Shown: in pieces, positions 5,316 to 37,260 of the stretch
Numbering within the stretch: the stretch's first letter is position 1
Layout of the letters: each line of letters starts with the position of its first letter
Source of the DNA: Candidatus Latescibacterota bacterium
GTDB taxonomy: Bacteria > Latescibacterota > UBA2968 > UBA8231
Reading direction: 5' to 3'
Assembly (NCBI GenBank): GCA_965223905.1
Contig: CBDCXV010000001.1
Location: 128,001-192,000 of the forward strand
DNA length: 64,000 nucleotides
Position numbers and translations under genes: made by a program
Notes under the pieces: model-generated
Seen by the model: the letters and a program-made list of their open reading frames with translations, nothing else
Told to the model about the DNA's origin: nothing
Database searches by the model: none

Positions 5316-6239
5316 ATGGAGAGACGAATGTCACGAGAACCGAACCGCTACATCAATCCCGACCGGGTGATGCTTGGAGAGAATACCCGCAAGGAGGTCC
5401 GTCAGGCGCTGCAAAGCGGCCGGTTGAAAGCGGCCATCGTCCCGATCGGCGCCATCGAGCAGCACAACGAGCACCTTGCCCTCAACGTAGACATTGTCGT
5501 CTCGACGTTTCTTGCCCGGCAGGCTGCCCTGCAGCTTTATCCACAGGTCGTGGTGGCTCCGGGTTGTCCGGTCGGGTACTCCCCCTACCACATGGCGCGC
5601 GAGGGCACCCTGACCCTGCGCAAGGAAACCCTGCGAGCCTACCTGTTCGATGTCGTACAAAGCCTCAAGACGCACGGCATCGCCACCATTCTGGTAGTCA
5701 ACGGACACGGCGGCAACCACGGTCTGCTGCGGGACGTGCTGCCCGAGTGGCGCCGCCGCCTGGGCGTGGTACTGGACGAGGTCTCCTACGCTTCAGGACT
5801 GACCGACGAGGAACGCGCGGATATTCTGCAAGGATACCGGGATCTCAGGGAGGGAAGGCTGGACACCGTAGCACGCCAGACCGCCCTCAACCATGCATCG
5901 GAGGAGGAGACCTCCCTGGTGCTGGCGATTTGCCCTCAGCGCGTTCGCGCCTTCACCATGGAGGAGTACGACCAGGAAGGGCTGGACTATGCGCGCGAAC
6001 TTTCCCCTGAAGTCGAGGAATATCTGGAGCCATTCTCGAAGGAGGGCTGGCCCCGGGCGGGGCCCAACCCCGAGAACCCACGGGACCGCGCCCGGCAGGA
6101 GAACGCCTTGCTCGCCTCGGCGGAAAAGGGGGAGGTGTTGATCGCATGCTACAGCAAGTTTATCGCGGAGAAACTGCAGGGAATGATCGACGGGGCGGAA
6201 GGAGACTCGGCTGGCTTCCGGCACAGTGATGGCTCGTGA
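5316..6239 (+). CDS. Creatininase family amidohydrolase
   Basis: PIGAIEQHNEHL..D, GYSPYH, VNGHGGN, HASEEETS. Confidence 0.88.
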   Translation: MERRMSREPNRYINPDRVMLGENTRKEVRQALQSGRLKAAIVPIGAIEQHNEHLALNVDIVVSTFLARQAALQLYPQVVVAPGCPVGYSPYHMAREGTLTLRKETLRAYLFDVVQSLKTHGIATILVVNGHGGNHGLLRDVLPEWRRRLGVVLDEVSYASGLTDEERADILQGYRDLREGRLDTVARQTALNHASEEETSLVLAICPQRVRAFTMEEYDQEGLDYARELSPEVEEYLEPFSKEGWPRAGPNPENPRDRARQENALLASAEKGEVLIACYSKFIAEKLQGMIDGAEGDSAGFRHSDGS

Positions 6240-9859: not shown

Positions 9860-11860
9860 TTAGTACGCCACGGAGATTACGCCGCTCCGCTCGTCGCGCC
9901 GTTCATCCGTCTCCACCGAGATGAAATAGATGTAGTTCCCCGGCGGAACCAGTTGGTCCCCGTCGTCACTTCCATCCCAGAACCATTCGTGCCTGCCGCT
10001 GAGGAGGGGGCCCCTCTGCAGCCGCCGAACCGTGCGACCGGCGAGGTCGTAGAGCGTGACCTGGGATTCGCCCGCCTCGCTCAGGTGGAGTAGCGCATAG
10101 GAAAGGACAGCCTGATCGTTGATCTGGTCCCCATTTGGGGTCAACACGCGGGGCGTCACCTGCAAGGCGTCGATAAGCTGTCCGCTTAAGGGGAAGGTCA
10201 CCGCAACCCCGCTGCCGGTGTAGAGACTGGAAGCATCGCCCCCGTCCACGAGCTGACGGACCTCGTCCAAGTCCTGGTCGAAAATCCAACTCCTGAACTC
10301 CGCGCCGTATCTGACTACCTGAGCCTCGAAAACGACTTCCAAGGGCGTCTTCGACTTCTCGATTCCCTGGAGTTGCTCGAAGTGCACGATGAGCCGGTCG
10401 TCGAGTATCTCAAGCGCGTCTGTTCGGGGAAGGCACGGAGCACACACGGTATCGGCGCCGACCCGCAGAGAGCGGACGGACGAAGGCCTCACGAATGTCT
10501 CGATCTCCAGGCTGTCGAAGCCGAGGTTGGTGTCTGTGAGCGTGGGTAGAACGGTGTAGGTAAAGACCGTATCCACGCCCGCCTGCACCTCGCGGGGGAA
10601 TATTTCGGCTACAGCCCGGCTGGCACTGGGCGGTTTGGAGAAGTCGAAGCCGACCGCCTCCAGCCGGGCGCCGTCGGTGATGGTGTTGTGGAAATCGATG
10701 CGGAACTGGAAGTAGCGCGCCGGCCCCGGGGACGTCAGCGGCACGCCCTCCACGCCACGGTCGAAATCGTAAGGCGGCGACCAGAAACTCCAGTTTTCGG
10801 TGTCGTATTCCCTGGGTCCGCGCTGGGTAGGCGGCAGTCTGTTGAAATCTCTCAGCGTCAGCGGCCGGCCGTCCAATGTCAGCGCGGCCATCTCGTCTCC
10901 CCGCCCCGGAATCCACCAGTAGACACTCGGATCCGGTGGGTCCTCGTCAAGGCCGGTTCGGGTCCGGATGACCACGCGGGCGTTCTCGTCTTTTGAACCG
11001 AGCCAGTGCAGCCGGCCCCAGCTGGCCTGCGTGCCGGGTAGATCCGGAAACACCTGAGATATATCGATGATCTCGGAGATGTAGGTTGCCTTTGGAACAA
11101 AACCTTCGCCGTAGATTTCAAGCTCGGCGATTTCCGCGGGCTTGCGGTTCGAGAACCGGAAGGCTTCCCTGGGATTCCGGGCGCGATTCTGCTGCTTGAT
11201 GGAGACATGACGGACCAGGCGGAGTGGAAACTCGGAGACGACTTCCCAATCCGTATTCTCGGTCTCCATGCGAATCTCGCAAGGCAGCGGCTCACAGTAC
11301 TCGTCCCATCTTGGGCTGCCCCCACCGGTGAGATTCTGTGGATCGCCATCGTTTACGTAGAGGGTGAACCAGTCGATGGTCTTCGTGACCCGATCCGGGT
11401 GGGTGTAGAACCGGATGCGATTGACCGGGAAGACGCCGCCCAGATCCAGTTTCGGCCAGCATAAAAATTTGGTGACCGGGAACACGAAAAAGGTCTCGAT
11501 ATTCCCGTCCAAGGCCGGGGAAAAATCGCAGAATTCGGAGGAAAGCCTGCCGCCCCGCTCCTCATACCCCAGACTCAGGTTGATGTCTGGCGTCACGGAG
11601 AACGGGGCCACGTGGGTCGCGGAAATGTCGAGCTGGATCATTCCGCGGGTAGTCTTGTTGAAGTCGGGGTAGATGCCCTCCTCCCCGTGTGCCGCGGTCT
11701 CCATCCAGCCGCGCGTCTCCTTCTCCAGTCCCGGGGACGTGGGCCACAGCCCATCGGTCGAACCGATAACGAGCAGGGCACGCGCCAGTGTTCCTTCGGG
11801 AAGGGCGAGGCTGAAGAGCGTTGCCGCCAGAAGGAGACAGGAGAAGCCTTTTGCATTCAT
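9860..11860 (-). CDS. Secreted multidomain protein (discoidin-like, Ig-like, C-terminal FlgD-Ig/type-B-CTD-like), paralog A
   Basis: Signal peptide MNAKGFSCLLLAATLF; LDLGGVFPVNRIRFY; EIYGEGFVP; WSFWSPPY; TPNGDQIND...LYDLAGRTVR...WDGSDDGDQLVPPGNY...VAY. Confidence 0.8.
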   Translation of the reverse strand: MNAKGFSCLLLAATLFSLALPEGTLARALLVIGSTDGLWPTSPGLEKETRGWMETAAHGEEGIYPDFNKTTRGMIQLDISATHVAPFSVTPDINLSLGYEERGGRLSSEFCDFSPALDGNIETFFVFPVTKFLCWPKLDLGGVFPVNRIRFYTHPDRVTKTIDWFTLYVNDGDPQNLTGGGSPRWDEYCEPLPCEIRMETENTDWEVVSEFPLRLVRHVSIKQQNRARNPREAFRFSNRKPAEIAELEIYGEGFVPKATYISEIIDISQVFPDLPGTQASWGRLHWLGSKDENARVVIRTRTGLDEDPPDPSVYWWIPGRGDEMAALTLDGRPLTLRDFNRLPPTQRGPREYDTENWSFWSPPYDFDRGVEGVPLTSPGPARYFQFRIDFHNTITDGARLEAVGFDFSKPPSASRAVAEIFPREVQAGVDTVFTYTVLPTLTDTNLGFDSLEIETFVRPSSVRSLRVGADTVCAPCLPRTDALEILDDRLIVHFEQLQGIEKSKTPLEVVFEAQVVRYGAEFRSWIFDQDLDEVRQLVDGGDASSLYTGSGVAVTFPLSGQLIDALQVTPRVLTPNGDQINDQAVLSYALLHLSEAGESQVTLYDLAGRTVRRLQRGPLLSGRHEWFWDGSDDGDQLVPPGNYIYFISVETDERRDERSGVISVAY

Positions 11861-12019
11861 CGGGCAAAACTCCCTTTGTCGAGATACCTCCTGGTGGAGG
11901 TAGAGCAGACCCCACAAAAGGGCGAAGAAACCAAGTTGAGGGCGGTGATCCAGGGACGACCGGAATGCCAGCGGTAGTGCTGTTTTAAGGTTTGCAACAC
12001 CGCGGGTGCATCATGTTGG

Positions 12020-15000
12020 TCAATAGGCCACGCTCACGACCCGGACCAGGGCGGTATCAGAGCCCGAGTCGCTGTCCACGTGGATGCGGCACAAATAGAG
12101 CCCGGGCGGCACCAAGTCTCCGGCGGCGGTCCGACCGTCCCACTCCAGCACCTCCTCGCCGCCCCTGCCCAGAGTCGACTCCACGGCCACCACCTCACCA
12201 CCGAGGGTAAAAAAACGGGCCTCGATCGGGCGCGGTACGTTGATGTTCACCACCGACAGCACCATGCGCAGACGATCATTGATGCCGTCGCCATTTGGTG
12301 TGAACGGATTGGAGGTGATTTCCAGACTGTGCAGGGCGCGTTGCGCGATCGGGGAAAACACGGACGTACCATGGCCCTCGATCCGCTCCATTGCGTCCCC
12401 CGGGTCCACTCGCTGCCACGATCCGGGTATTCGGGAGTTGGCCACTTCAGACGAAAAGGTCGTGCCGTTCAGGAAGATTCGGGAGCGGAAGCGCAGCTCA
12501 ACCACCTCGCCTTCGCGCACGACTACCCCTTTCCGATTGCCCAGGCGATTGTAACGGCTCCGGGTCAGCGGCTCTCCGTCGTTGTCCAAGGCTACCTCCT
12601 CGCCTTGGAAGAGCTGTCGGAAGTAGCGCACCGGTCCCTGCGATGCGAAGGGCAGCTTGCCGTAGGTTCCCTTGTCCACCAGGCGCAGAATGGAAACAGG
12701 GGTCGCCCCGCTGCTGTCCATACCCGCGACCTCGAAGTATTCGATGCGACCCTGCTCCTCTGCCGGCAGCTGAGTATACTCATACCGCGAGAGAGGGCCG
12801 CCGGACTTGTTGAGCGGGGCCTCATCCCCGGCCAGGGCGATGCGATGGTACACCGGCTCCAGATCGGCATTCACCTCCACCAGTTCGGGAAGCTTGATCC
12901 ATATACTGTCGGGCCCGGTGGGTCGGACTTCGAGAGCCTCTCCCGATTTATTGGCAAATGTGCCGCCACCATCGTCCCCGAATACCTCGACTTCGTCTCC
13001 CGGAAGTCCTTCGCCCCCCAGCAACTCCTCCCGTCCCCCCAGACGCACTTCGATCAACGCCATCTCCGTCCGCTGCGAGGCCATTACCCGGATCTCGTCG
13101 AAACGGGGGCTCGCATCCGGCTGCTCCACGAACAACGGCCGCACATACAGCGAAAACGTGTCGGCTTCAACGCTGCGCACCTCCATCCGGGGCGTGATTT
13201 CGGCAACCAGCTGCCGCGCCAGGGGATCGGTGAGGTGCACGATCAGCGAATCCAGCGTCGCAAACAGATCCGGCCGGCTCGACCGCAACTTGGCCTGCAG
13301 CTTGAGAAACCGCCTCGGCGAAGGCGACAGAAAAGCGTCTCCGGGATGCTCATACGCCTTGCTCCACGGGCTCCAGTCCACCCCGGGAGCGTAGGTTGCA
13401 GTCGAATCGCCGCGACGCGACGCGACCTTTCTGGAATACTGCTGGCGCGTGATTTCCTTGCCGTTCGAGTCGAAAAAGTGCCATTCCGGGATCAGCTCGT
13501 TCCCGGTCTGGGTGCGGATCTCGATACCGGTTCCCGGCGGGGTCTCGCCGACCCATGACACCCGCGTCAGGTTGCGCTCTTGGGACCCGCCGTCACTGTT
13601 CTTGAACTCGATGAGCGGCGAGGTAAGCGTCACCTCGGGAACATACCCTTCCCCGAACAATTGGATCTCGGAAAACGGCCGTTCCTCTCCGTGGACGGCC
13701 GTATACCTGCCGGTACCGTCGAGATGCCTGACTTCAAGGAAGCGAACCGGGCGCGATTCGAAGCGGTCCTCGAAATACAGCACCTTTGAAGCATTGATTT
13801 CGCGCTCCACCGGACTGATGGAATCCCAGACCAGGGTCCTGTCCGAAGCCCTGGATCCGTCCGAGACCCGCGTTACATACCCGTGTAACCAGGCTCTCAT
13901 GTTACTGAATTCAGGGAAGGGGAGAAGGCGGACGGTGTCGATCCAGAACGTGGACCCGAGGTCGGCCGTCATCCGCCCGCCCTTTGTGGCCGCGGGTCCC
14001 TCGGCAGCGAAGACCGGGGCCAACCAGAAGGTGCCCCACTGCCCGTCGAATGCATTCAAGGCCACTTGTCTAGTGGCAGCGTCGCCGGTAACCTCGATCG
14101 CCCCGCCCCTCTCCAGGATCCCCAGACCCAGGTTGTCCCCAAGCGTGTGAACCTCCACGTCCGCCAGTCGCGGCCGCTCCCGCCGGTAGAACCGCACCGT
14201 ATCCTGGCGCTCAGGGTTGGCCTCGAATTCGCGCTTGCTGGCCCGGTTGGCCCCCCCGTCCATACTCTTCAGGTAGTAATCCACGGCGCCCCGCTGCACC
14301 GCGGGCAGGGCGGCGTGAGCGGCCCTGCTGATCTCCTCGGCCCGGTCGAGGTTGCTGTCGGTCACCACGATCCGCACGTACTGCACCGGCATTCCGGTGA
14401 AACCTTGCACTGCAACGTCGTCCGGCTCGAGCAGATACTCGAACAGCCGCTGGTCGCGCACCCCACGGGTCGTACCCCCGATGATGCGGTAGTTCATCAA
14501 CTGTTTGTTGCCAAAGGCAAAGTCCCCCCTGCTTGCCAGCACCCTGAACTGAAAAAACGGATCGCCCAGATCCTCCTCGACGAAACGCAAAACGATCTTC
14601 TCCGCTGCCACCAGTCGGCCGAGATCCAGCTCCAGCCACCACTCGTTCGGCGGCCGGTCCAGATCCGGACCCCAGAAGGTCTCGAAGCGATCTGCACCCC
14701 GGTCGATCGCACCCCCCGCCCGCGCCTGGTTGCAGCCCGCATCCTTGATGCCGCCCCGAGCAAGGAGAGCCGACCCCTTCTCGAAGGTGTTGATGAAAAA
14801 ATCCTTCTGTGTGTTCTCGATGGGATGGGTGAATGAGGCGGCCTCGCTCACCGCGTCCACCTTTTTTCTGATCAATTTCGGTCGGAACTGTCCCGCCCGG
14901 GTGATTTCCACCGCATCCTGGCGGCTCTCGCCGACTGGCTCCTGCAGATCCCCCAGGCTCCACTCGTTCCAGTCCCGCTCCCGGGCCACTGTAAGCCGCT

Positions 15001-15094
15001 GGCCGTGCAACTGGAAGCCTTGGGCGAACACCGAACCAGTCCAGAGCGCAAAGGCCAATCCCAGGAACGCGGCTTTTTTCAAATTTTCATGCAT
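12020..15094 (-). CDS. Secreted multidomain protein with two discoidin-like domains and FlgD-Ig/type-B-CTD-like C-terminus, paralog B
   Basis: Signal peptide; LDLGRLV, ADLGSTFWID; EIQLFGEGYVP; WSPWSKAY; NPFTPNGDGIND...WDGRTAAGDLVPPGLY...VAY. Confidence 0.8.
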   Translation of the reverse strand: MHENLKKAAFLGLAFALWTGSVFAQGFQLHGQRLTVARERDWNEWSLGDLQEPVGESRQDAVEITRAGQFRPKLIRKKVDAVSEAASFTHPIENTQKDFFINTFEKGSALLARGGIKDAGCNQARAGGAIDRGADRFETFWGPDLDRPPNEWWLELDLGRLVAAEKIVLRFVEEDLGDPFFQFRVLASRGDFAFGNKQLMNYRIIGGTTRGVRDQRLFEYLLEPDDVAVQGFTGMPVQYVRIVVTDSNLDRAEEISRAAHAALPAVQRGAVDYYLKSMDGGANRASKREFEANPERQDTVRFYRRERPRLADVEVHTLGDNLGLGILERGGAIEVTGDAATRQVALNAFDGQWGTFWLAPVFAAEGPAATKGGRMTADLGSTFWIDTVRLLPFPEFSNMRAWLHGYVTRVSDGSRASDRTLVWDSISPVEREINASKVLYFEDRFESRPVRFLEVRHLDGTGRYTAVHGEERPFSEIQLFGEGYVPEVTLTSPLIEFKNSDGGSQERNLTRVSWVGETPPGTGIEIRTQTGNELIPEWHFFDSNGKEITRQQYSRKVASRRGDSTATYAPGVDWSPWSKAYEHPGDAFLSPSPRRFLKLQAKLRSSRPDLFATLDSLIVHLTDPLARQLVAEITPRMEVRSVEADTFSLYVRPLFVEQPDASPRFDEIRVMASQRTEMALIEVRLGGREELLGGEGLPGDEVEVFGDDGGGTFANKSGEALEVRPTGPDSIWIKLPELVEVNADLEPVYHRIALAGDEAPLNKSGGPLSRYEYTQLPAEEQGRIEYFEVAGMDSSGATPVSILRLVDKGTYGKLPFASQGPVRYFRQLFQGEEVALDNDGEPLTRSRYNRLGNRKGVVVREGEVVELRFRSRIFLNGTTFSSEVANSRIPGSWQRVDPGDAMERIEGHGTSVFSPIAQRALHSLEITSNPFTPNGDGINDRLRMVLSVVNINVPRPIEARFFTLGGEVVAVESTLGRGGEEVLEWDGRTAAGDLVPPGLYLCRIHVDSDSGSDTALVRVVSVAY

Positions 15095-15102
15095 CGTCGG
15101 AG

Positions 15103-15141
15103 AAAAAAAAGCGAGGGAGGCCTTACATCCTCCCTCGCTTT
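15103..15141 (-). terminator. Rho-independent terminator after the 15196-16095 gene, just upstream of the paralog B start
   Basis: Minus strand AAAGCGAGGGAGG-ATGTAAGG-CCTCCCTCGC followed by TTTTTTTT. Confidence 0.85.
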
Positions 15142-15195
15142 CAGGCAGTTACGCCTCTTCTTCAGTGCCGATTTTACTTCTATCTACCCTTCCAC

Positions 15196-16095
15196 CTAGT
15201 GGAAGCGGGACTTCAACCGGCCCCAGGTCTCATTCTCGACCGCTGTATCTTCGGCGGGGGCGAGGAAGAAATCGCTCGTATCGTTGCCGCCGTCGAAACC
15301 TCCGGTGGCCCAGAAGCCGTCGTAGGTGTTATTGGGGCCGTCTTCCACGGGCGGGTTGTCGCCCAATGGTCCGTCGAAGTCCGCGAAGACCATGGAGAAG
15401 CCCACTGTCCCGCCCGTCTCGAAGTCGCTCCTGGTGGCTGCGCTGAGATCTTCGTTGTGGATCAGCACGTCCCACGCGGCGAGGCTGATCTCGTAGAAGT
15501 AGGTGCTCTCGCCAAATTCGTCGCCCTCGAACGACCAGGTGATGTTCATGTACGGCGGCAACGCAGCTTCCGGTTGTTTGTTTTCGCCAACCACACTGTT
15601 CGCCGCGTTGGGTCCGCCTTCGACCGGGGGCACCATGACACCCCACCACTGATACCCGTGATTTTTCGCAAGTGCTCTGGTCTCGTCGTCGACGTCCTCC
15701 ACCTTACCCCAATCCTCTATGTGGGGACTCCCGTCGTGATTGCCGTCGATGTGGAGCTCGACCGTGTCGTCTCTGATGCCATCGTCCGACTCGTGAAAGT
15801 CATCGAACACCCAACCGGCTACATAGAACAAGTCGTTGTTCGGGTTGTACCCCACCTTGAAGCGGATATCGAGGTCGTCCTTCTCGATCTCATATTGATA
15901 AATGACGTCATACGTGATATCGGTCGTGATGGCATACGCCTGATCGGGAACGATGTCCCACTCACTTATGTCCCCGTCAAGGGTGGGCAGCATGCCGTCC
16001 GGCCACAGGAACGCGTTGAACTCCAAGCCATCGTGTGCCCGCATCGGAGTGGCCAAAAAAGCTGTGGCCAAACACAACAACAAGATTTTACTCAT
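15196..16095 (-). CDS. Secreted acidic CBM9/DOMON-like putative ligand-binding protein with C-terminal VENETWGRLK tag
   Basis: Signal peptide MSKILLLCLATAFLATPMRA-H; PTLDGDISEW, DTVELHIDGNHDG, VGFSMVFADFD; GAGGAGG RBS. Confidence 0.75.
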   Translation of the reverse strand: MSKILLLCLATAFLATPMRAHDGLEFNAFLWPDGMLPTLDGDISEWDIVPDQAYAITTDITYDVIYQYEIEKDDLDIRFKVGYNPNNDLFYVAGWVFDDFHESDDGIRDDTVELHIDGNHDGSPHIEDWGKVEDVDDETRALAKNHGYQWWGVMVPPVEGGPNAANSVVGENKQPEAALPPYMNITWSFEGDEFGESTYFYEISLAAWDVLIHNEDLSAATRSDFETGGTVGFSMVFADFDGPLGDNPPVEDGPNNTYDGFWATGGFDGGNDTSDFFLAPAEDTAVENETWGRLKSRFH

Positions 16096-16140
16096 AACGT
16101 CCTCCTCTAAGGTTGGTTGAAAATCCGAGAGGTCGGATTT

Positions 16141-16166
16141 AGTTGATATAGAGCTGAGTTGATATA
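16141..16166. repeat. 10-bp direct repeat AGTTGATATA x2 (period 16) in the divergent promoter region
   Basis: Exact copies at 16141-16150 and 16157-16166. Confidence 0.8.
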
Positions 16167-16192
16167 ATGGTTCATTAAAAACGGGATGTCAA
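16164..16192 (-). promoter_or_regulatory. Sigma70-type promoter for the leftward unit
   Basis: Minus strand TTGACA (16192-16187), 17 nt, CATTAT (16169-16164). Confidence 0.55.
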
Positions 16193-16200
16193 GCAAAACG

Positions 16201-16230
16201 TTGACAAGCCTCCCGTCTCAGTCGTATAAT
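16201..16230 (+). promoter_or_regulatory. Consensus sigma70 promoter for the rightward unit
   Basis: TTGACA (16201-16206), 18 nt, TATAAT (16225-16230). Confidence 0.75.
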
Positions 16231-16348
16231 CCACCCGCATTCTGGAGAATGTGACGCGGCCGGTATAACTATCTGATTTTCAAGAAGATATAAGAATTAA
16301 AATTTAAATCCTGGCGACCGGACTCGCCGGTCTGGCCTGAACGGGTGG

Positions 16349-18766
16349 ATGATCATGCGGTACCTGGCTCTCATGTGCCGCTGCATCGCGAGCTGCGGGT
16401 TCCTCGGGTGGGGTCCCTTTTCCCTCCAGGAGAGTCATGCGTTGGATACCCTCGTCGTCGGTGAGGCCGAACGCCCCTGGATCGAGGGCGGCGGGGATGA
16501 GAACACATCGCCTCCCGGCCTCACGCCGATGTTCCGCCTGACCCCCCGCACCGTTGGCACCGGCAACACTCCCGGGGAGGTCGTCGATTTCGCCACCGAT
16601 CCCGACTGGATCGCGCCTACCCAGATCGACCCAGAGCGCAACATTTTCCAGCTCATCCGCGAGCAGGGAGGGGCTTACAGTATCTCTTCCCCAAACAACA
16701 GCGATCTGTCCAGGGCTGAAGCGCGCCAGGTGCTGATCGGCGTCACCGACGGCAGCGCCACGGTCTACCTCCGCAAACCCACCCCGACACAGCCGAACGT
16801 CAATCCGAATGGCGAGCACATCGACATCGACCTGGGCGCCCCCTACGGCCTCGAACGGATCGTGTTCTATCCCAGCTCCTTCTTCCTCTCGGACTTCCTC
16901 AGAGCTTTCGAAATCAAGGTCAACGACGGCACGATTCTCACCGATTCCGGCAACCCCGACTGGCGCGCGACCCCCCTGGCCTTCCGGGAAGGTCTGAATA
17001 CCCGCAGCCGGACCGACGTGCGGATACCGCTTCAGTTCGTGCGCTACATGCGCCTGACGTCTCGGACCGCCATCGGCTTCGAGATCGACGAAATCGAGCT
17101 CCACGGCCGCGGATACGTGCCGACCAGCCGCTACCTCTCCGACATTTTCGATCTGGGAGAGAAAGGCGCCCTGTGGGGCCGTATTCACTGGTCGGCCGAG
17201 GCCGTCGGCGACCCTTCCCGATCCAGCATGTCCGTGCGCACCCGTAGCGGCAGCACCCCCTCCAACCTGGTCTTCACCCGCAGGGTATCGGAGGGAACTC
17301 TGGGCCGGGAACCCTTCCTCGTCGAGATGGATCGGATATCCTACGACCGGGCCCTGGTCGGCTTCGTTCTGGGGCCGGTGGAGGTGCCGGAGCAGACCCT
17401 GGAACCTGCGGACTACAGCCTACTGTCCGAGGAAGTGAGGGAGTGGCTCGATCAACAGGGAGCCGCCTACACAGTGCTCGACGAGGAGGATGACGAGCAA
17501 CCGGCAAACCGGGCGGAATACGATGTGGTCGCACTCGCGCGTCAAGGCCGGGTTTCGTTGGCGGCCCTCCAGATCGATCCGGATATCTACCAGATTTTGG
17601 AAGGCCCGGTCAGGAACTGGCTGCAGGAGCGCGGAGCTCGGTATTTCCGCCGAGCCAACATCGGCGCGGACGTGCCCTACGGCATCGATGGACAGCTGCT
17701 GAACGCCACCACCTACAACCGTCTGCCTGCGGTCCAGCGTGGACCCATGCTGGACGACACCGAGAATTGGAGCCCGTGGTCGGCACCCTACCTGACGAAG
17801 CCAGGCCAGGAGGGGATCCAGATCACCTCCCCCGCCCCCCGGCAGTTCTTTCAATTCGAGATCCGCTTCACCAGCAGGGACCTGGCGTCGGCGCGCCGGG
17901 TAGACTTCCTCTCCTTCGAGGTCTCGTTCCCGCCGGTAGCCCAGTTCCTGGTTGCGGAGATCTTCCCGCGCCAGGTACAGCCCGGCGTGAGCGTGGAATT
18001 CGTGTATGCGGTGCGGACCTCGCTGGTTCCCTCCGACCCGGGATACGACAGCTTCGAGATTCGGACCTCGACCCCCATCGAGCGCCTTGAAGAGATCCAG
18101 ATCCTCGATGCGCAGGGAGCCATCCTGGACGAACAGGTTTTCGGAGTAGACGTGGAGGGGCTGGCCCTTCCTTACTCACCAGATGGGCACGAAGAATGGG
18201 CTCTGGTATCCGTGGATCCCACCCGCTTCCGGGTGCGTTTTCCGAGGATCGATGCCGACGGGACCGTGCTTCGCCTCCGTTTCGTCACATCGGTTCTGCG
18301 CTACGGCCTCACCTTTGACGGCTGGGGGTTCGAGGAGGGATCCGGGGAGCTGCCGCAGCCTGCGGTTCCCGGCAACGTCATACAGCTGGCCCCCAACGAT
18401 GCGGACAACCGTTCGAACCTGACGGTTCTCGTCGACCTGAAGGGGGACCTGCTGCGCGCGGTGCGCGTGGTCCCCAACCCGTTTACGCCGAACGGCGACG
18501 GCGTCAACGATGTCGCCGAGATTCGCTACGACCTGTTCAAACTGACCGAGGCGACGCCAGTTGAGATCGTCATCTACGATCTTTCGGGCCGGCGCATCGA
18601 CGTCGTGGCCGCCCGCGAGATCGAAAGCGGACGCTATGCCGTGCCGTGGAACGGAACCGACAGAGGTGACCGGCTCGTGCCACCCGGGCTGTATCTGTTC
18701 GAAATCCGGATAGAAGCAGACACGAAACCGGAAGAGGCGCTGGGAACAATCGCCGTCGTCTATTGA
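16349..18766 (+). CDS. Secreted multidomain protein with FlgD-Ig/type-B-CTD-like C-terminus, paralog C
   Basis: IDLGAPYGLERIVFYP; EIELHGRGYVP; WSPWSAPY; PNPFTPNGDGVND...IYDLSGRRI...WNGTDRGDRLVPPGLY...VVY. Confidence 0.8.
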   Translation: MIMRYLALMCRCIASCGFLGWGPFSLQESHALDTLVVGEAERPWIEGGGDENTSPPGLTPMFRLTPRTVGTGNTPGEVVDFATDPDWIAPTQIDPERNIFQLIREQGGAYSISSPNNSDLSRAEARQVLIGVTDGSATVYLRKPTPTQPNVNPNGEHIDIDLGAPYGLERIVFYPSSFFLSDFLRAFEIKVNDGTILTDSGNPDWRATPLAFREGLNTRSRTDVRIPLQFVRYMRLTSRTAIGFEIDEIELHGRGYVPTSRYLSDIFDLGEKGALWGRIHWSAEAVGDPSRSSMSVRTRSGSTPSNLVFTRRVSEGTLGREPFLVEMDRISYDRALVGFVLGPVEVPEQTLEPADYSLLSEEVREWLDQQGAAYTVLDEEDDEQPANRAEYDVVALARQGRVSLAALQIDPDIYQILEGPVRNWLQERGARYFRRANIGADVPYGIDGQLLNATTYNRLPAVQRGPMLDDTENWSPWSAPYLTKPGQEGIQITSPAPRQFFQFEIRFTSRDLASARRVDFLSFEVSFPPVAQFLVAEIFPRQVQPGVSVEFVYAVRTSLVPSDPGYDSFEIRTSTPIERLEEIQILDAQGAILDEQVFGVDVEGLALPYSPDGHEEWALVSVDPTRFRVRFPRIDADGTVLRLRFVTSVLRYGLTFDGWGFEEGSGELPQPAVPGNVIQLAPNDADNRSNLTVLVDLKGDLLRAVRVVPNPFTPNGDGVNDVAEIRYDLFKLTEATPVEIVIYDLSGRRIDVVAAREIESGRYAVPWNGTDRGDRLVPPGLYLFEIRIEADTKPEEALGTIAVVY

Positions 18767-18835
18767 GAAGACACCTCATTCGCGGTCGTGGATATCAATG
18801 CGTTGACGAGCCCAGGCCGGGCTTCGAGCCATTGC

Positions 18836-18877
18836 CGGGATTCCTCCATTCTGTCTCGGGATTCCTCCATTCTGTCT
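18836..18877. repeat. Perfect 21-bp tandem repeat x2 (CGGGATTCCTCCATTCTGTCT)
   Basis: Copies at 18836-18856 and 18857-18877, between paralog C and the 901-aa gene. Confidence 0.9.
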
Positions 18878-18953
18878 CCGGAACCGGCGTCGTCAACAGA
18901 CTGATCGGGCCGGTTGTGAGTTTGGAGGGGGTGTATCCGCAGGAGGGCTTTCT

Positions 18954-21659
18954 GTGAAAAGACCGATTCTACCCAACCGAGTTGCTCTGTTCGCGCTGAT
19001 CCTGATCCTGGGGTCCGGCGCCACCCTCGCGCAGGAGGACTATGGCTCGCGTCTGGGCGTCCGCAAGGCGGATGCCTTCAGCTATGAACCGCAGGGAGCG
19101 GGAGTGCTCCTTCACGCCCTGGACCCGGCCATGCGCAAGTGGTACGTGCCACAAGAGCTTTACCTGGCATACCGCTGGCGCCAGTGGGAGTACACCAACT
19201 ACGCCCGGGAACCCTTCCAGCGTTACGTCAGCGTGGATCTGGAAGGGGACTATTTCTACGATCTCTACGGCCGCTTCGTGACGAAGGGCTGGCTCATCTA
19301 CGACCAGACCCAGACACAGCCCCAGACCCAGTTCGGCAGTTCCATTTACAAGGATCCGAGATTCGCGGGATGGTTCAATGGGCTGTTGATCGCCTCCGAC
19401 GGAAAGGGACAGTATCACTACTCCCTGGGCATCGGGAGCCAACTGCGAACGGTCCTGACCCCGCTGACCTTTGCCAAATCCCGGTTCAACGGCCTTCAGT
19501 GGGACTTGGCCTCAGACAAGTACGAGGCAACCGTCCTCTATTCCCGCATCAGCGCGGGAGGCGGCGACCCGCCTGTCAGGAACACCAACAACACCACCCT
19601 GTTCGGCAGCCGGATTTCCGCCCAGGTGGGTGATTTCATCACCCTTGGCGCCAATCTGGTCAACGCCCATCACTCTCACACCCAGCTCTCCGGATTCAAG
19701 GGCAGTGCCATCAAAGGGGAGCTGACGGTCGATCAGAACTCGGTCCCCGTGTCCTGGGTGGAGGTCATTCTGCGGGACGATTCGCCGGAAGACGGCGTGG
19801 GAGGGGCCGCCTTCTTCGAGGGCGGCTCGGATCTCATCATCACCTACATCGACGGCTTCGAGGAGACGGCCAACGAGATCGGCTTCGAACCGATCATCGA
19901 CGGTGGGTTCCCGCGGGCCGGCTTCCGCGCTGCGGACGGAAGCGAATCCATCACGGTGCGCTACGATTTCGACGCCACCGGATTCGTGGCCGGGGCACAC
20001 GGAGACAAATCCGAGATCGCCAAGGTCCGCTTCCGCCTGGCGGTAGGCAACGACTACCAGATCTGGATGAACTCCAGCCGCCAGACCACGGCCGGCACCG
20101 CCAAGCTGGGCTCGCGCGGCGAGCAACCCACGCCCCTGCTCGTTGCCCGCGCTGCGGGGAACGTACAGGACAATTCCAATCTGCGCCTCCTCAGCTTCGA
20201 GTACGGTCTCCCCACGGCATCCCATATCGTCGGCGCCACCGTCGAAATGAGGAATGTGGCCGGCTTCAACCTCTATGGTGAGTTCGACCGGTCCTTCAGC
20301 TACCGGATGTATCCCAACCCCAACCTGATCACTCACGACGCCGCCTCCGGCATCGTCGGCAATCCCGCTTCAGATGCCTGGATGGTAAACGTCTCGAAGC
20401 AGGCCCATCCCTATTTCCTGTTCGGCGAAGCCTTCAGCATGGAGCACGGCTACTCGACCACTGCCTTCGTCACCGAGACGAGACCGCGCCCCGGATTCGT
20501 GGACTACCAGGATACCCGCAACTTCTTCGAATTCGTCGACGACAACGACGACCAGGACCGCTTCCCCGACAACCAGCGCAGGGACTATCAAACCGGCGAC
20601 TTCGAGGTGTTCCCGGGCTGGGACGAAAACAACGACTTCATTTCCGACTTCAACCAGAACGACAACCGCCGCAGCCAACGCCCCAACGAGTTTCCGGACT
20701 ACGAAGAGCCGTTCCTTCGTTTCAACGTCGATCGGCCGGAATTTCTGTTCGGCCCCGACATGAACAACAACGGCTGGATCGACCGGTTCGAAAACGACGA
20801 GGAGCCGGACTACCCCTACCGCCGGGACCACAGCGGCTACAATATTTACGCCGGCGCCGACATCACCCCGGAACTTCGGGTGACGGCCGGCCGCATCGAC
20901 GAACGCCTGCTGTCCGCAGCCCGCGACAACGAGACCAACTACTTGCTGGCTACCCTCGACCGCGACTATCCGGGGTTCGGTCGCTTACGCGTCTTCGATA
21001 TGCTCAAACGCACGAAGGACGACATCCACGAGAACCTCTTCCAGTGGGTGTACTCGAGCAATGAATCACAGGGGGAACTGCGCCGCATTACCGACCCCCT
21101 GCTGTTCGAGGACGCCTGGCACAACAGCCTTTGGCTCGGTCATGACTACACCGGCGTGCAAAACCTCAAGGTCATCAATAAGGTTAAATGGGACGTTGCG
21201 CATACCTTTCTCGACAGCACCGAGCGCAGGGTCCGCAGCCTGGTGCAGAACGAGCACTTCTTCGGACTCGTCAACAAGGTCGGCTACCGACTGGAAGTAG
21301 GCTTTCTTGAGCTGGAGCCAAGATGGAAAAGCGAGTACCGGCACCAGTCGCGGGATCTTTTCAGCGCGACCAAGCGCGAAGAGCTCACCGAGATGGTCTC
21401 CGTGCTCGGCCGTTTTCCATTCCTCAGAAGAAGCTTTGTCGAGGCTGGGGTGGAATACCTGTGGTTCAAAGACCTGCGGGAGGACCAGAACGATTTGTCC
21501 AATCGGATCCTGGCCGTGCAATTCACCAACAGAGTGGACTATCTGGGCTACAAGCTGACCACGCAGTTCGGAATGAAGCTCGACCGCCGCGACCCGAAGG
21601 GGGAAGAGGCCATCACCACGCAGGAAAATTTCATCATCGTCTACGCCGGCCTGGAGTGA
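18954..21659 (+). CDS. Large exported protein, putative outer-membrane beta-barrel with Asp/Asn-rich Ca-binding-like loops
   Basis: GTG start with AGGAGGG RBS; signal peptide; DDNDDQDRFPD, DENNDFISD, DMNNNGWID motifs; C-terminal third of alternating amphipathic strands ending FIIVYAGLE. Confidence 0.6.
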   Translation: MKRPILPNRVALFALILILGSGATLAQEDYGSRLGVRKADAFSYEPQGAGVLLHALDPAMRKWYVPQELYLAYRWRQWEYTNYAREPFQRYVSVDLEGDYFYDLYGRFVTKGWLIYDQTQTQPQTQFGSSIYKDPRFAGWFNGLLIASDGKGQYHYSLGIGSQLRTVLTPLTFAKSRFNGLQWDLASDKYEATVLYSRISAGGGDPPVRNTNNTTLFGSRISAQVGDFITLGANLVNAHHSHTQLSGFKGSAIKGELTVDQNSVPVSWVEVILRDDSPEDGVGGAAFFEGGSDLIITYIDGFEETANEIGFEPIIDGGFPRAGFRAADGSESITVRYDFDATGFVAGAHGDKSEIAKVRFRLAVGNDYQIWMNSSRQTTAGTAKLGSRGEQPTPLLVARAAGNVQDNSNLRLLSFEYGLPTASHIVGATVEMRNVAGFNLYGEFDRSFSYRMYPNPNLITHDAASGIVGNPASDAWMVNVSKQAHPYFLFGEAFSMEHGYSTTAFVTETRPRPGFVDYQDTRNFFEFVDDNDDQDRFPDNQRRDYQTGDFEVFPGWDENNDFISDFNQNDNRRSQRPNEFPDYEEPFLRFNVDRPEFLFGPDMNNNGWIDRFENDEEPDYPYRRDHSGYNIYAGADITPELRVTAGRIDERLLSAARDNETNYLLATLDRDYPGFGRLRVFDMLKRTKDDIHENLFQWVYSSNESQGELRRITDPLLFEDAWHNSLWLGHDYTGVQNLKVINKVKWDVAHTFLDSTERRVRSLVQNEHFFGLVNKVGYRLEVGFLELEPRWKSEYRHQSRDLFSATKREELTEMVSVLGRFPFLRRSFVEAGVEYLWFKDLREDQNDLSNRILAVQFTNRVDYLGYKLTTQFGMKLDRRDPKGEEAITTQENFIIVYAGLE

Positions 21660-21710
21660 TTTTTTTTCGCGCCGGGAACCGAAATCAAGGCGTGACCAAG
21701 GTCCATTCGG

Positions 21711-22100
21711 TCAAACAGCCCCCCTCGTCTCAACTTCGATCACTACGTCCTCTACGCTGTTCGGGGGAGGACTGACAACTATGAAGATGCGGACGGTATC
21801 ACCCGCCTGGGCTACCTGGGTGTACCGCGCCTCCCCGATCTCGCCCCGGGTTCTCTCGATATTGATGTTGAAGATCTCGACATCTTCCGCCACGGGTACT
21901 CTCACCGCCTTTCGGGTTCCGCCTCTCAAGGTGAAATCCGCCGTGGTCCCCACTACCGTGATCCGGTAGGTATGATCGGGTGTGTCATTGATGAACAGGA
22001 TTTCGTCGTCCGCTCCCCCTGTATCCGCAAGCCTTTGTCCGCCGCAACCGGAGACCAGACAGAACGATAGCGCCACGATCGACCGAGTCCACCTGCTCAT
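21711..22100 (-). CDS. Putative small lipoprotein
   Basis: MSRWTRSIVALSFCLVSG-C lipobox; GAGGAGG RBS upstream of ATG 22100; beta-rich mature part. Confidence 0.7.
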   Translation of the reverse strand: MSRWTRSIVALSFCLVSGCGGQRLADTGGADDEILFINDTPDHTYRITVVGTTADFTLRGGTRKAVRVPVAEDVEIFNINIERTRGEIGEARYTQVAQAGDTVRIFIVVSPPPNSVEDVVIEVETRGAV

Positions 22101-22240
22101 GGGGTGATCCTCCTCACTCCGGTCCTTAGTGTCCAGTCCACGGAAATTCCTCCGTTTTTCGCGTCGATCAATCCAAGCTCGCTGTGTACACCGAAATTCA
22201 TTGCGCGCCATTGGACGCCTGAGAATATAGCATTTAACCC

Positions 22241-24244
22241 ATGCCAGCATCTGAGACCATGCCGGTCGAGCAGTCCTCTTCCAGCCAGCCCAGGGACCGC
22301 AGGACTGCGGACCCGGACAGGGGATGCACCCTGAGAGCCTTGATCGCAGGAATGGCCGGGGCTCTTTGTATCGGACTCGGATCGACCTACAACGACCTGG
22401 TTATAAAAAGCTCCAGACTCGCTATCTGGAACGTGACCCCGGCCGCCATCTTCCTCTTCTTCGTGCTGGTCGCGCTCGTCAATGTCGTCCTGCGGTGGAT
22501 CCATCCCCGCCTCTCCCTCAAACGGGGAGAGCTGGCAGTCGTCTATTTCCTCATCCTGTTGGCCAACACCCTGACCGGCCGGGCCTTCTCGGGCATGGTG
22601 CTCCCGGTGATAACGGGGGCCTTTTACTACGCCACCCCGGAAAACAACTGGGTCGAGGTGATACAGCCCTATCTGCCTGCATGGCCGGTCCCGCAGGGCG
22701 ACGAGATAATCCGAGGTCTCTACGAGGGGGGAGGCGTCGCCAGCGTGCCATGGGAGGCGTGGTTGCATCCCCTGTCCCACTGGCTGGCCTTCGGCCTCGC
22801 CCTTTTTCTGGCGATGGTCTGTCTGATGGTCATCGTGCGGCGGCAGTGGGTGAAGCACGAACGGCTGGTCTATCCCATGGTGCAACTGCCGCTTGCCATG
22901 ATCGGAGACGACGGGAAAGACTCCGCCATAAAACCCCTGTTCCGCAGCGGCCTGATGTGGGTAGGTTTCGCAATCGTTTTTGGGGCAGGCACGCTCAATG
23001 CCCTGCACAGTTACTTCCCAAGCGTCCCCGCCATCAGGTTTTCTCTGGGCAATTTTACGCTCTACCAAGAGGTGGGCATCAGACTGAGCGTCAATCCGTC
23101 GATGTTCGGTTTTTCCTATTTCATCCCTCAGAACGTGTCCCTGGGGCTGAGTTTCTTTCATCTCATGAACCAGCTGCAGTTGGGCCTTTTCCACGCCCTG
23201 GGTTGGCAGCAGCGTGAAGCGGCCATGGGGATCTACAGCACCTACACCGATTCCAACATCGTCCATCAGTCGATGGGTGGGATGATCGTCCTGGTCCTGG
23301 GAACGTTGTGGGTCGGCCGGCGCCACCTGATGGCCGTGTGGCGCAAGGCAATGGGCCTTGACCCCTCCGTGGACGACGCGGACGAGATCCTCTCCTATAG
23401 ATTCGCGGTCCTGGGCACCATAGTGAGCTTTGTGGCCATGGGCGTGTGGCTTTGGCAGACCGGCATTCCCCTGTTATTCGTCCCGATACTTCTGTTCGGC
23501 GCCTTCGTCATCTTCATGACCATCACCCGCGTCGTCGCCCAAGGGGGAGTTGCGGCGATGTTTCCGCCGACAAACGCGCCGGACTTCGTCATTTCCGGAG
23601 TGGGGGCTTCGGCCCTGGGGCCTAAAGGCGTAGCGGGACTGGCTCTGAGCTACGGCTGGGGCGTGGACACCCTCATCCTGCTGATGAGTGCCTGCGCCAA
23701 CGGACTGAAGCTGATCAGCGAAGTAGCCCTGCCTCACCGCCGGCGGCTCTTTGGGGGGATTGTCGCCGTGATCGTGCTGACCTTGGCAGGTTCTATTGGG
23801 ACGACGCTCTACCTGAGCCACAAACACGGAGCCATCAATCTGGAGCCGGGCTTTTTCGAGGCGGTCGGCCAGTACCCCTACTGGTTCATGGAGAAGAGCA
23901 TCCACAATCCGGCCGGCCCGAATTTGAGCGGCTGGATCCACAAAGGAGTGGGGGCCGCCATCATGGCCGGATTGATGGTGGCGAACCACCGATGGGTCTG
24001 GTGGCCCTTTCATCCGGTGGGTTACCCCATCAGCTGCGTATTCCGCACCATGTTCTTCAGCGTCTTCGCCGCCTGGATGATCAAGGCGTTTATTCTCAAG
24101 TACTGGGGCCTGGGGCTTTTCAACCGGCTCAAGCCGCTGTTTCTGGGTTTTATTCTGGGTGAGGCGGTGGTGGCGGGAACCTGGGTCATCATCGATTACT
24201 TTACCGGCATGCACAACAACCGGCTCGGGGTCGTCATGCAGTGA
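22241..24244 (+). CDS. Polytopic inner-membrane protein, DUF6785/DUF6784-like (OPT-related putative transporter)
   Basis: Many TM helices; ELAVVY, VPWEAWLHPL, RRQWVKHERLVYPMVQLP, WWPFHPVGY, KPLFLGFILGE. Confidence 0.7.
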   Translation: MPASETMPVEQSSSSQPRDRRTADPDRGCTLRALIAGMAGALCIGLGSTYNDLVIKSSRLAIWNVTPAAIFLFFVLVALVNVVLRWIHPRLSLKRGELAVVYFLILLANTLTGRAFSGMVLPVITGAFYYATPENNWVEVIQPYLPAWPVPQGDEIIRGLYEGGGVASVPWEAWLHPLSHWLAFGLALFLAMVCLMVIVRRQWVKHERLVYPMVQLPLAMIGDDGKDSAIKPLFRSGLMWVGFAIVFGAGTLNALHSYFPSVPAIRFSLGNFTLYQEVGIRLSVNPSMFGFSYFIPQNVSLGLSFFHLMNQLQLGLFHALGWQQREAAMGIYSTYTDSNIVHQSMGGMIVLVLGTLWVGRRHLMAVWRKAMGLDPSVDDADEILSYRFAVLGTIVSFVAMGVWLWQTGIPLLFVPILLFGAFVIFMTITRVVAQGGVAAMFPPTNAPDFVISGVGASALGPKGVAGLALSYGWGVDTLILLMSACANGLKLISEVALPHRRRLFGGIVAVIVLTLAGSIGTTLYLSHKHGAINLEPGFFEAVGQYPYWFMEKSIHNPAGPNLSGWIHKGVGAAIMAGLMVANHRWVWWPFHPVGYPISCVFRTMFFSVFAAWMIKAFILKYWGLGLFNRLKPLFLGFILGEAVVAGTWVIIDYFTGMHNNRLGVVMQ

Positions 24245-29416: not shown

Positions 29417-29579
29417 GGCTGCGAGATTTCCCTTATCCCCGGGAAGCTTTCCGGCGAACGCTCCACACCACAACGCGGGCCTTGGTCCGGCAAAAAGAGC
29501 GGCGAGTCGGTAAGGATTCTCCGAGCTTGACCACAGTGGAGAGATGGAAGAAAATCGGCGGCAGACACAGGGAGGTCTC

Positions 29580-30593: not shown

Positions 30594-30600
30594 GGCCGGC

Positions 30601-31533: not shown

Positions 31534-31553
31534 CGGAGAAGGCTGGAGATGGA

Positions 31554-32627: not shown

Positions 32628-32756
32628 AAGACCCCGGGACAACGAGCAGGAGACGGGTTTTTTCCGCCATGACGGCACGGGCACAGCGCGGGGCACAGTC
32701 GGGTTCCCACTTCGACAACGCCGGCGATGCGCCGGGGGCGGCCGCTTCCGGGTTCC

Positions 32757-36135: not shown

Positions 36136-36140
36136 GATCC

Positions 36141-37136: not shown

Positions 37137-37179
37137 GGACGGGCAAAGTAGGCCGTGCCGGACGGAGCAGCCAGTCGTT

Positions 37180-37208
37180 TTGACACGCAAAATCCGAACA
37201 GCTATTCT
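37180..37208 (+). promoter_or_regulatory. Sigma70-type promoter for the PPIase-TPR gene
   Basis: TTGACA (37180-37185), 17 nt, TATTCT (37203-37208). Confidence 0.6.
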
Positions 37209-37260
37209 CCCGCCGCTCACCGTATATCCCAATCCTTGAAGATTGCACACGAATAGGCAG

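Follow-up and report, generated by a model that had tools for sequence, protein, structure and literature searches.

We analyzed a 64,000-nucleotide window of the genome of an uncultured, sponge-associated Latescibacterota bacterium (7.9-Mb genome, 93.6% complete; assembly GCA_965223905.1, contig CBDCXV010000001.1, positions 128,001 to 192,000 of the forward strand), in which five neighboring genes occupy positions 9860 to 21659. These five genes are one copy of a modular, much-duplicated cassette, whose members are conserved and duplicated together and are present in RNA libraries, and the locus is one of roughly 20 paralogous cassettes. All five open reading frames (ORFs) had been recognized at the same positions in an earlier reading of the letters alone (the sequence-only reading). 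The present analysis goes beyond that reading and alters its picture in three respects: the approximately 20 cassettes, the conserved 1:1:1 triad of paralogs, and the genome-wide occurrence of the WGRLK tag. We give an even chance to the interpretation that the cassette encodes a surface glycan-capture complex resembling SusCD and the utilisomes, in which lectins are sorted to a cognate barrel by signals of the kind used in type IX secretion systems (T9SS).

Three of the genes encode the paralogs A, B and C, which define the D family of A/B/C-like proteins, and the others encode the WGRLK-tailed protein W and the 901-aa exported protein O, a predicted barrel. Judged by eye, the N-termini of all five look like signal peptides; for A, the likelier start is M20 (11860), which is followed by a hydrophobic stretch. 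The features of the locus, in window coordinates, are as follows (AF2, AlphaFold2).

9860-11917, minus strand: A, D-class A protein (ORF of 685 aa; CHU_C/FlgD_ig matches; AF2 model)
12020-15094, minus strand: B, D-class B protein of the long class (ORF of 1024 aa; BLASTP matches to A and C)
15107-15142, minus strand: hairpin resembling an intrinsic terminator, directly after W (14-bp stem, then a T run)
15196-16095, minus strand: W, exported protein, probably CBM9-like, with the tag TAVENETWGRLKSRFH at its C-terminus (ORF of 299 aa, ending ...ETWGRLKSRFH)
16164-16192, minus strand: sigma-70-like promoter toward W (10/12 consensus match)
16201-16230, plus strand: perfect sigma-70 consensus TTGACA-18-TATAAT toward C and O (consensus match)
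16349-18766, plus strand: C, D-class C protein, directly upstream of O (ORF of 805 aa; CHU_C/FlgD_ig above cut-off)
18954-21659, plus strand: O, predicted giant outer-membrane β-barrel of clade I (ORF of 901 aa; AF2 model; tree)

Duplication, conservation and transcripts of the cassette

A family profile search detected 35 O genes in the own genome (G000, with contigs labelled C1-C11), together with 56 D ORFs, 51 of which carry the C-terminal domain (CTD). The two families are closely linked: an O gene is at most 10 kb away from 47 of the 56 D-core genes, and the converse is true of 31 of the 35 O genes. The maps repeat a unit of W with one to three D and one to three O genes, and one paralogous locus, C11:1735914-1746708, is fully syntenic with that of the window.

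The same arrangement was found in other genomes (related loci are numbered L### and sampled genomes G###). We scanned one genome per species with a 26-row O alignment and used the best 80 loci of 528 relatives. A D gene with a CTD was found beside O in 79 of the 80 loci, the exception (L070) being cut by a contig end, and a W-family or tail-bearing gene was present in 67. When assigned by best match to A, B or C, the 215 D genes of these loci divided into 71 A, 71 B and 73 C, and the usual composition was one of each per cassette, in orders such as bOcaOW (14 loci), bOcaW (9), WcOab (8) and cOWab (7). That three non-redundant subunits have been kept at 1:1:1 through many duplications argues for a hetero-oligomer. 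Two of the loci, L028 and L029, are orthologous to that of the window and share its divergent layout. Furthermore, in a phyletic sample of 61 Latescibacterota genomes, in which kin are not independent, O was detected in 37 genomes and D in 22, every one of which also had O. Whenever O was close (best E = 0; 18 genomes), D was present as well, none of the 24 O-negative genomes had D, and 15 genomes contained a distant O only and no D. The conservation of the neighborhood, which the sequence-only reading had put forward as a check, was thus confirmed by both the related loci and the strict phyletic co-occurrence.

A midpoint-rooted FastTree phylogeny of the own-genome O genes separates two clades. 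Clade I comprises 22 O genes, including that of the window, each with two to four TPNGD-type D genes (see below) within 12 kb, and clade II comprises 13 O genes with at most one such D gene within 12 kb. ExbB genes lie within 3.5-11 kb of six of the 13 clade-II O genes and near none of the 22 clade-I O genes, the window's cassette included. The clade-II clusters belong to the same barrel family (O profile, 650-855 bits) and likewise adjoin a CTD protein ending in ...V[AV]Y, but they differ from the window in having two to three tandem barrels with a single CTD protein, no A/B/C triad and, in some loci, a PorV/Q-like small barrel (C2:294808, C11:911074). The presence of ExbB motors beside clade-II O genes suggests a transport role or ancestry for the family. 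Clade-II loci map to C2:278827-297481, C11:908093-919098, C3:1-5973, C1:1494106-1506832, C10:2104863-2115939 and C8:36642-43654.

Back-to-back promoters had also been proposed for the region between W and C. The 253-bp, AT-rich spacer between these divergent genes indeed carries consensus matches on both strands, but promoter-like sites are not enriched in the region as a whole (4 versus 2.8 ± 1.7 in shuffles), and the matches were scored against the sigma-70 consensus, which may not be the promoter type of this phylum. The RNA data comprised contigs of near-identical sequence from four metatranscriptome runs of one study ('sponge metagenome'). These contigs touch all five genes, leaving some stretches of C and O without coverage, and may partly stem from carried-over DNA. 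One RNA contig of 1019 nt corresponds to 15134-16149, from the predicted W promoter to the terminator, with its 15134 end inside the hairpin, and contigs from three runs end at 16149, a point 15 nt downstream of W's predicted −10 element, although contigs of this kind do not prove transcript ends. The word depth of the RNA contigs is 18-30 for W (all four runs) and 2-5 for A, B, C and O; such depths do not rank genes, but they hint that W is a separate, abundant transcript. In addition, three runs have contigs in which position 18501 is followed by 18673, so that 171 bases are passed over, with long loose ends on both sides. These most likely derive from paralogous D genes that share a short CTD stretch and not from a processed C.

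Predicted structures and C-terminal signals of the cassette proteins

The AF2 model of O, built with 62 homologs (pLDDT 81.1, pTM 0.78), contains approximately 28-30 long strands between residues ~144 and 899, as counted from the DSSP string. A highly conserved, aromatic-rich N-terminal extension (aa 26-95) largely coincides with a low-confidence coil in the model (residues 22-93), and residues 527-625 form an Asp/Asn-rich coil insert. The best Foldseek matches were Deinococcus SlpA/SDBC, MtrB, LptD, SprA and FimD, at TM 0.2-0.25, and VIA-align matched FhaC and TamA at Z 13-14, as well as Sam50 and porins (overall Z 11-14). As only giant or generic barrels matched the fold, O would be an outer-membrane barrel without a specific relative. 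We thus state with good confidence, from the model, that O is a very large outer-membrane β-barrel of an unannotated family, and the structure prediction that the sequence-only reading had called for agrees with its guess of a barrel. The family is large, with at least 851 relatives in a 90%-clustered collection and 735 representatives at E ≤ 1e-3 in a 50%-clustered library. Among the 120 relatives listed, none carries a Pfam domain, and those named by their source are 'hypothetical' proteins from metagenome-assembled genomes (MAGs) of Latescibacteria or Handelsmanbacteria.

O itself matched nothing in Pfam and NCBIfam at E ≤ 0.1. It has no Plug or TonB_dep_Rec match and no globular plug in the model, and TonB-dependent transporter structures appeared only as generic barrel matches. 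Membership of the PorP/SprF family was likewise not found, as there was no hidden Markov model (HMM) match and O has 901 aa versus about 300 aa for the barrels of that family. Two other candidates were set aside: a likeness to DUF6029, which came from an atlas lead (score 0.88), obtained no support from Pfam, and the idea of O as a stand-in for TonB-dependent receptors was rejected, since the own genome has at least 27 Plug-domain matches.

The paralogy and co-linearity of A, B and C, noticed earlier from shared motifs, were confirmed by BLASTP. A and C align at 9e-60 (363 aa, 37% identical) and again, co-linearly, in an N-terminal segment at 1e-14; B and C align at 3e-19 with further co-linear segments, and A and B at 1e-15 and 8e-13. 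A consists of a putative signal peptide, a CBM32 domain, Ig-like sandwiches and the CTD TPNGDQIND...SVAY. B carries the CTD TPNGDGIND...SVAY and, at its N-terminus, an additional discoidin-like region, and its class has a median length of 1018 aa in 71 relatives. C is marked by an insertion at roughly aa 310-445, and its CTD is TPNGDGVND...AVVY. The AF2 model of A (pLDDT 81.1, pTM 0.71) is an all-β string, which includes a CBM32/discoidin fold (4zxe, Z 16.2, root-mean-square deviation (rmsd) 2.2 Å, 126 aligned), with further CBM32 matches to 4a42 (CBM32 of CpGH89, Z 15.9) and 4a44 (TMt 0.73), and the rest of the model resembles Ig-like, MG-like and FN3-like sandwiches. The discoidin-like nature claimed for these proteins therefore stands on the fold of A, but not on sequence HMMs, which scored C with PF00754 at 14.7 bits and B with PF22633 at 17.3 bits, both under the cut-off.

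The CTDs had been read as type B T9SS domains with a part matching FlgD-Ig. At Pfam cut-offs of 27, the CHU_C/FlgD_ig bit scores were 29.7/34.9 for A and 35.1/28.1 for C, but only 19.0/14.2, below cut-off, for B. TIGR04131 (cut-off 35) also remained below threshold with A (21.6) and C (26.3) and did not match B. Among the matches listed, 119 of 120 homologs of A carry PF13585 (CHU_C), and a few of them are named 'gliding motility-associated C-terminal domain-containing protein'. The last ~105 residues of A align with the PorU C-terminal domain (6za2_B; Z 12.1, rmsd 2.7 Å, 99 aa), and the modelled CTD is a regular type-A/PorU-like Ig sandwich, unlike the fold described for type B, for which there is no solved structure as comparator. 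The type B assignment is supported for A and C at the level of Pfam, while B and the TIGR04131 scores stay below cut-off and the modelled fold looks rather like type A.

The own genome has two classes of T9SS-type domains, one of which is tied to O-family neighborhoods. TPNGDxxND was found within the last 140 aa of 47 ORFs, 46 of which are of the D family, and the C-terminal residue of D proteins is aromatic, mostly in VAY or VVY, in all 51 cases from the own genome and all 215 from the related loci. The other class comprises 47 CTD-bearing ORFs of the 'NYPNPFN...LLR' type, 39 of which end in R or K. Four ORFs of this class end in Y, and three of the four adjoin clade-II O genes. An aromatic residue at the very C-terminus calls to mind the signals that outer-membrane assembly factors recognize.

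W matched nothing in Pfam and NCBIfam, and a single-sequence search against solved structures returned nothing. Its nearest atlas clusters carry CBM9_1 in 13-100% of their members, 8 of 31 aligned members of the W family match CBM9_1 (PF06452, best E 3.9e-5), and the family profile reaches the CBM9 structure 1i82 at E 0.22 only. From these similarities, W is probably CBM9-like. W was also considered as the missing PorP-like barrel, and this was rejected, since the family matches CBM9_1 and true PorV/Q-like barrels look different.

The tail of W proved to be widespread. Among own-genome ORFs of at least 100 aa, the pattern WG.[ILVM]K occurs 103 times, of which 62 fall in the last 13 residues versus 3.5 expected under uniform placement, and the tail consensus is T-A-V-E-x-x-[ST]-W-G-R-I-K-A-S-[LF] (in W, codons at 15196-15246). 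The 62 tail-bearing ORFs have a median length of ~300 aa; 34 belong to the wider family of W (94 ORFs) and 28 fall outside it, and 17 of the 62 lie within 10 kb of an O gene. Since the tail is thus mostly away from O and spread over families, it would be a general rather than a cassette-specific signal, and it looks like a sorting or anchoring signal that does without a transmembrane helix. Among the own-genome ORFs, the one most similar to the PorV/PorQ-like small barrels is C2:361691-362641 (249 bits against the small-barrel profile). It lies just downstream of the tail-bearing ORFs C2:357225-357716 and about 359754-360741, with an ExbB gene (C2:366184) 3.5 kb away, an arrangement that may hint at the reader of the WGxIK tag.

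Secretion machinery, small barrels and flanking genes

We searched the own genome for T9SS components. SprA (607 bits summed) and PorU (617 bits) were detected, a PorV-like gene lies directly after PorU (91 bits, cut-off 250), and GldK gave a partial match only (92 bits). PorP/SprF (TIGR03519, PF11751), GldL, GldM and GldN gave no match in this 93.6% complete genome, with models that matched no control genome either. A complete canonical T9SS that would make all of the proteins ordinary substrates, the outcome against which the sequence-only reading had set its proposal, was thus not seen. SprA was found in 56 of the 61 sampled genomes, and it was matched in all 22 D-positive genomes, although in G029 (78% complete) below the family cut-off. 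A second PorU-like ORF of 1840 aa lies at C1:110954-116476, about 11.5 kb before the window start; it matches NF033707 with 259 bits over model positions 7-736 and, separately, with 42.8 bits over 959-1091, and it has its own type-A-like C-terminal domain, ending in ...LVIVR.

Weak PF11751 matches were obtained in 18 of the 61 genomes, mainly in the genus g6 (14 of 14), a lineage without O and D. In G031, G035 and G001, the matching ORFs are ~300-aa barrels of the PorV/PorQ family (NF033709, 48-92 bits), located either in the interval from a D gene to O or immediately behind O, and the neighboring O in G031 and G035 is of the close type (best E = 0). A PorV/Q-like small-barrel profile gave no matches in the 80 related loci, and the PorV/Q-like small barrels of the own genome lie beside clade-II O genes or elsewhere. 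The position of such a barrel between D and O in some relatives implies that O need not be a shuttle.

The genes around the cassette are heterogeneous, and three of those downstream of O are listed below.

22241-24244, plus strand: DUF6785/DUF6784 polytopic membrane protein, a recurrent cassette neighbor
25263-28364, plus strand: spermidine-synthase-like fusion of 1033 aa, a recurrent cassette neighbor
37243-39687, plus strand: fusion of a SurA-like double peptidyl-prolyl isomerase (PPIase) with TPR, 814 aa, 15 kb beyond O

The DUF6785 family also flanks L029, L030, L031, L049 (two copies) and L075 (two copies), and its member in the window is a candidate inner-membrane partner of the cassette. 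The spermidine-synthase-like architecture is found in the flanks of L031, L035, L068 and L075, where some copies also match MFS and/or TPR. Near the cassette, the window further contains a DUF4838 (glycosidase-like) gene and a GH32/43-like gene besides that for DUF6785/6784. A catabolic run at 28433-37250 encodes a GFO/IDH/MocA oxidoreductase, a PhyH dioxygenase, Amidohydro_2, hydantoinase B, Amidohydro_3 and Ldh_2, and a creatininase gene lies upstream at 5316-6239; creatininase, PhyH and Amidohydro_2 recur beside cassettes of other genomes.

The flanks of 14 related loci were surveyed with Pfam on 94 of 171 selected ORFs. A SurA-like double PPIase of ~550 aa was present in 11 of the 14 loci, directly after O in L028 and L029. 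A ~740-aa protein with a PMT_2 (GT-C glycosyltransferase-like) membrane domain at its N-terminus and TPR repeats at its C-terminus was also recurrent, often directly after O (L030:12690-14906, L031:12723-14933, L035:12710-14986, L041:12698-14683, L046:10926-13280 and L058:12630-14876), and in L028 and L029 its gene lies between the A and B orthologs. The window contains neither a PMT_2-TPR gene in the A-B gap (11917-12020) nor a PPIase gene after O (21659-22241). The PMT_2-TPR architecture recalls the eukaryotic TMTC O-mannosyltransferases, which act on Ig-like domains, and by this analogy the PMT_2-TPR protein might glycosylate the D proteins. Other recurrent genes encode DUF6785/6784, FG-GAP/UnbV_ASPIC proteins and Spermine_synth fusions. 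Carbohydrate-active enzymes were only occasional among the 94 ORFs, with PcRGLX-like, GHL10 and GDSL proteins among many unrelated genes.

Interpretation and comparison with known systems

In the interpretation to which we give an even chance, A, B, C, W and O would cross the inner membrane by Sec, and A, B and C would then pass the outer membrane through the SprA-type translocon of the genome by means of their CTD. The TPNGD...VAY domain class, nearly confined to O neighborhoods, would direct them to the cognate barrel, where, together with W, they would remain as a hetero-oligomeric crown that binds glycans. The barrel would be at least an anchor and probably also a conduit, through which substrate would move toward the periplasm and the DUF6785 membrane protein, and the roughly twenty cassettes would represent alternative specificities. 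A bolder form of this proposal is tentative, and we regard it as possible rather than probable: TPNGDGxND...V[AV]Y would be a third kind of T9SS-type sorting or anchoring signal, whose invariant C-terminal aromatic strand docks on a dedicated, so far undescribed ~30-strand barrel, each cell would hold at least 20 alternative hetero-oligomeric lectin complexes of A+B+C+W on O, and the logic of polysaccharide utilization loci (PULs) or utilisomes would have arisen independently, without SusC, SusD and TonB.

Several points weigh against the capture complex. O has neither a plug domain nor a recognizable TonB-box-like feature, and no ExbB gene lies near clade-I O genes, which leaves energized import without support in that clade. 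With at least 27 Plug-domain (TonB-dependent) receptors of its own, the genome does not need O as a substitute for them, and the scarcity of carbohydrate-active enzymes in the flanks makes the PUL analogy weaker than in Bacteroidota. As the CTD is type-A-like in fold but type-B-like in motif, its receptor cannot be deduced from Bacteroidota, and a PorV/PorQ-family barrel, not O, may be the partner of the CTD; the contact of D proteins or W with O is a supposition. A complex prediction of O (residues 26-901) with the last 116 residues of C, run without controls (score 0.00, mark 0.32), counts neither toward nor against binding. Finally, because the genome is incomplete and the models were silent in the controls, both the absence of GldL, GldM, GldN and PorP/SprF and the functioning of the T9SS are uncertain.

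We weighed three other explanations. O could serve as an anchor or shuttle only, that is, as a non-homologous replacement for PorP/SprF that takes CTD proteins from SprA and holds adhesins for host, particles or prey, without any transport. According to parts of PMC12618676 and PMC9143113, type B cargo of Bacteroidota needs a cognate PorP/SprF barrel encoded directly downstream, and in line with such a replacement PorP/SprF models match nothing in the own genome, the CTD class linked to O differs from the generic one, O follows the D genes in most cassettes, and the concentration of PF11751-type matches in g6 gives a partly complementary distribution. However, PorP/SprF reach only a third of the size of O and do not match it in sequence, small PorV/PorQ barrels coexist with a close O in G031 and G035, the ExbB motors that accompany the clade-II relatives suggest a transport ancestry, and approximately 20 cassettes with three lectin subunits each would be much for adhesion alone. 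We consider this explanation rather unlikely. The sequence-only reading had inferred a non-homologous cognate barrel that exports or scaffolds the CTD proteins; the giant barrel and the co-occurrence of the genes agree with this, whereas the role of a PorP/SprF stand-in was not borne out, in view of the PorU-like CTD, the PorV/PorQ barrels in relatives and the ExbB-linked branch.

It is less likely still, and in our judgment improbable, that O is a dedicated export pore, which would translocate or assemble A, B and C in an usher- or two-partner-like manner independently of SprA, reading TPNGD...VAY perhaps via the N-terminal extension of clade I, with the SurA-like PPIase as chaperone. The barrel is large enough, FimD, FhaC and TamA are among the fold matches, SurA-like PPIase genes occur in 11 of 14 loci, the aromatic C-terminus resembles outer-membrane assembly signals, and the T9SS motor genes were not detected. 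Yet the fold matches are generic (TM 0.2-0.25, and Z values such as any barrel would give), the CTD resembles a T9SS CTD in its fold, and SprA, PorU and the PorV-like gene, along with dozens of further CTD proteins, imply that a T9SS-type route operates. That the genes are coincidental neighbors, with ordinary T9SS cargo beside an unrelated porin-like gene, is hardly credible: high-GC MAGs are rich in exported β-rich proteins and the cassette flanks are heterogeneous, but this explanation is contradicted by the association in 79 of 80 loci, the 71:71:73 triad, the strict co-occurrence in 61 genomes and the O-specific CTD class.

The proposed capture complex resembles two known kinds of system. 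Like the SusC/SusD utilisomes (BT2261-2264, PDB 5fq8; BT1762-1763, PDB 5t3r), the cassette occurs as many paralogous loci per genome and pairs a large outer-membrane barrel with putative surface glycan-binding proteins, with some context of carbohydrate enzymes and inner-membrane transporters. It differs in that O lacks a Plug or TonB_dep_Rec domain and resembles other barrels only generically, clade I is without a Ton motor gene nearby, the partners of O are T9SS-type CTD proteins and a C-terminally tagged protein instead of SusD-like lipoproteins, and the own genome contains at least 27 ordinary Plug-domain receptors as well. Type B T9SS cargo pairs with a cognate PorP/SprF barrel, as in SprB-SprF and PG1035-PorP-PorE; as far as the passages concerned in PMC12618676 and PMC9143113 describe it, the cassette shares with this system the FTPNGDGxND-type motif, a CHU_C (PF13585) match that exceeds the cut-off in A and C, the coupling of cargo and barrel genes, often with the barrel directly downstream, and the occurrence of several cargo/barrel pairs per genome. 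In contrast, the barrel here, of about 900 aa with some 28-30 strands, falls outside the PorP/SprF family, TIGR04131 stays below cut-off, the modelled CTD is PorU/type-A-like and always ends in V[AV]Y, the cargo is a fixed triad, and the phylum is Latescibacterota, with GldL/M/N not detected. Deinococcus SlpA/SDBC (PDB 8ae1, 8agd, 7zgx), the top Foldseek match to O (E about 3e-8), is also a giant barrel bearing surface structures, but with TM 0.21-0.25 and 9-10% identity, and with no SLH domain or coiled-coil stalk in O, the likeness is generic.

A literature search, with subscription journals outside its coverage, found no description of the cassette, of the WGRLK tail or of type IX secretion in Latescibacteria. 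Transit across the outer membrane of Latescibacteria has been ascribed to 'non-specific porins' in the genomic survey PMC4454575, in the part of its text that was covered, where the word 'discoidin' does not occur. What is new here is the giant-barrel family, the multi-copy cassette and the fixed CBM32/Ig triad with its own CTD class; they resemble PUL-like capture loci on the one hand and cargo/barrel pairs of the T9SS on the other.

The Latescibacterota are a widespread, uncultured phylum, and little is understood of how their surface interacts with polymers. An unannotated barrel family with hundreds of members, present in 35 copies in one genome and tied to a lectin-type triad, is a candidate for the main substrate-capture device of this phylum. 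The cassette also bears on how T9SS-type signals work outside Bacteroidota, to which the system is usually said to be confined, and on whether the pairing of cargo and barrel may have been re-invented with a non-homologous barrel.

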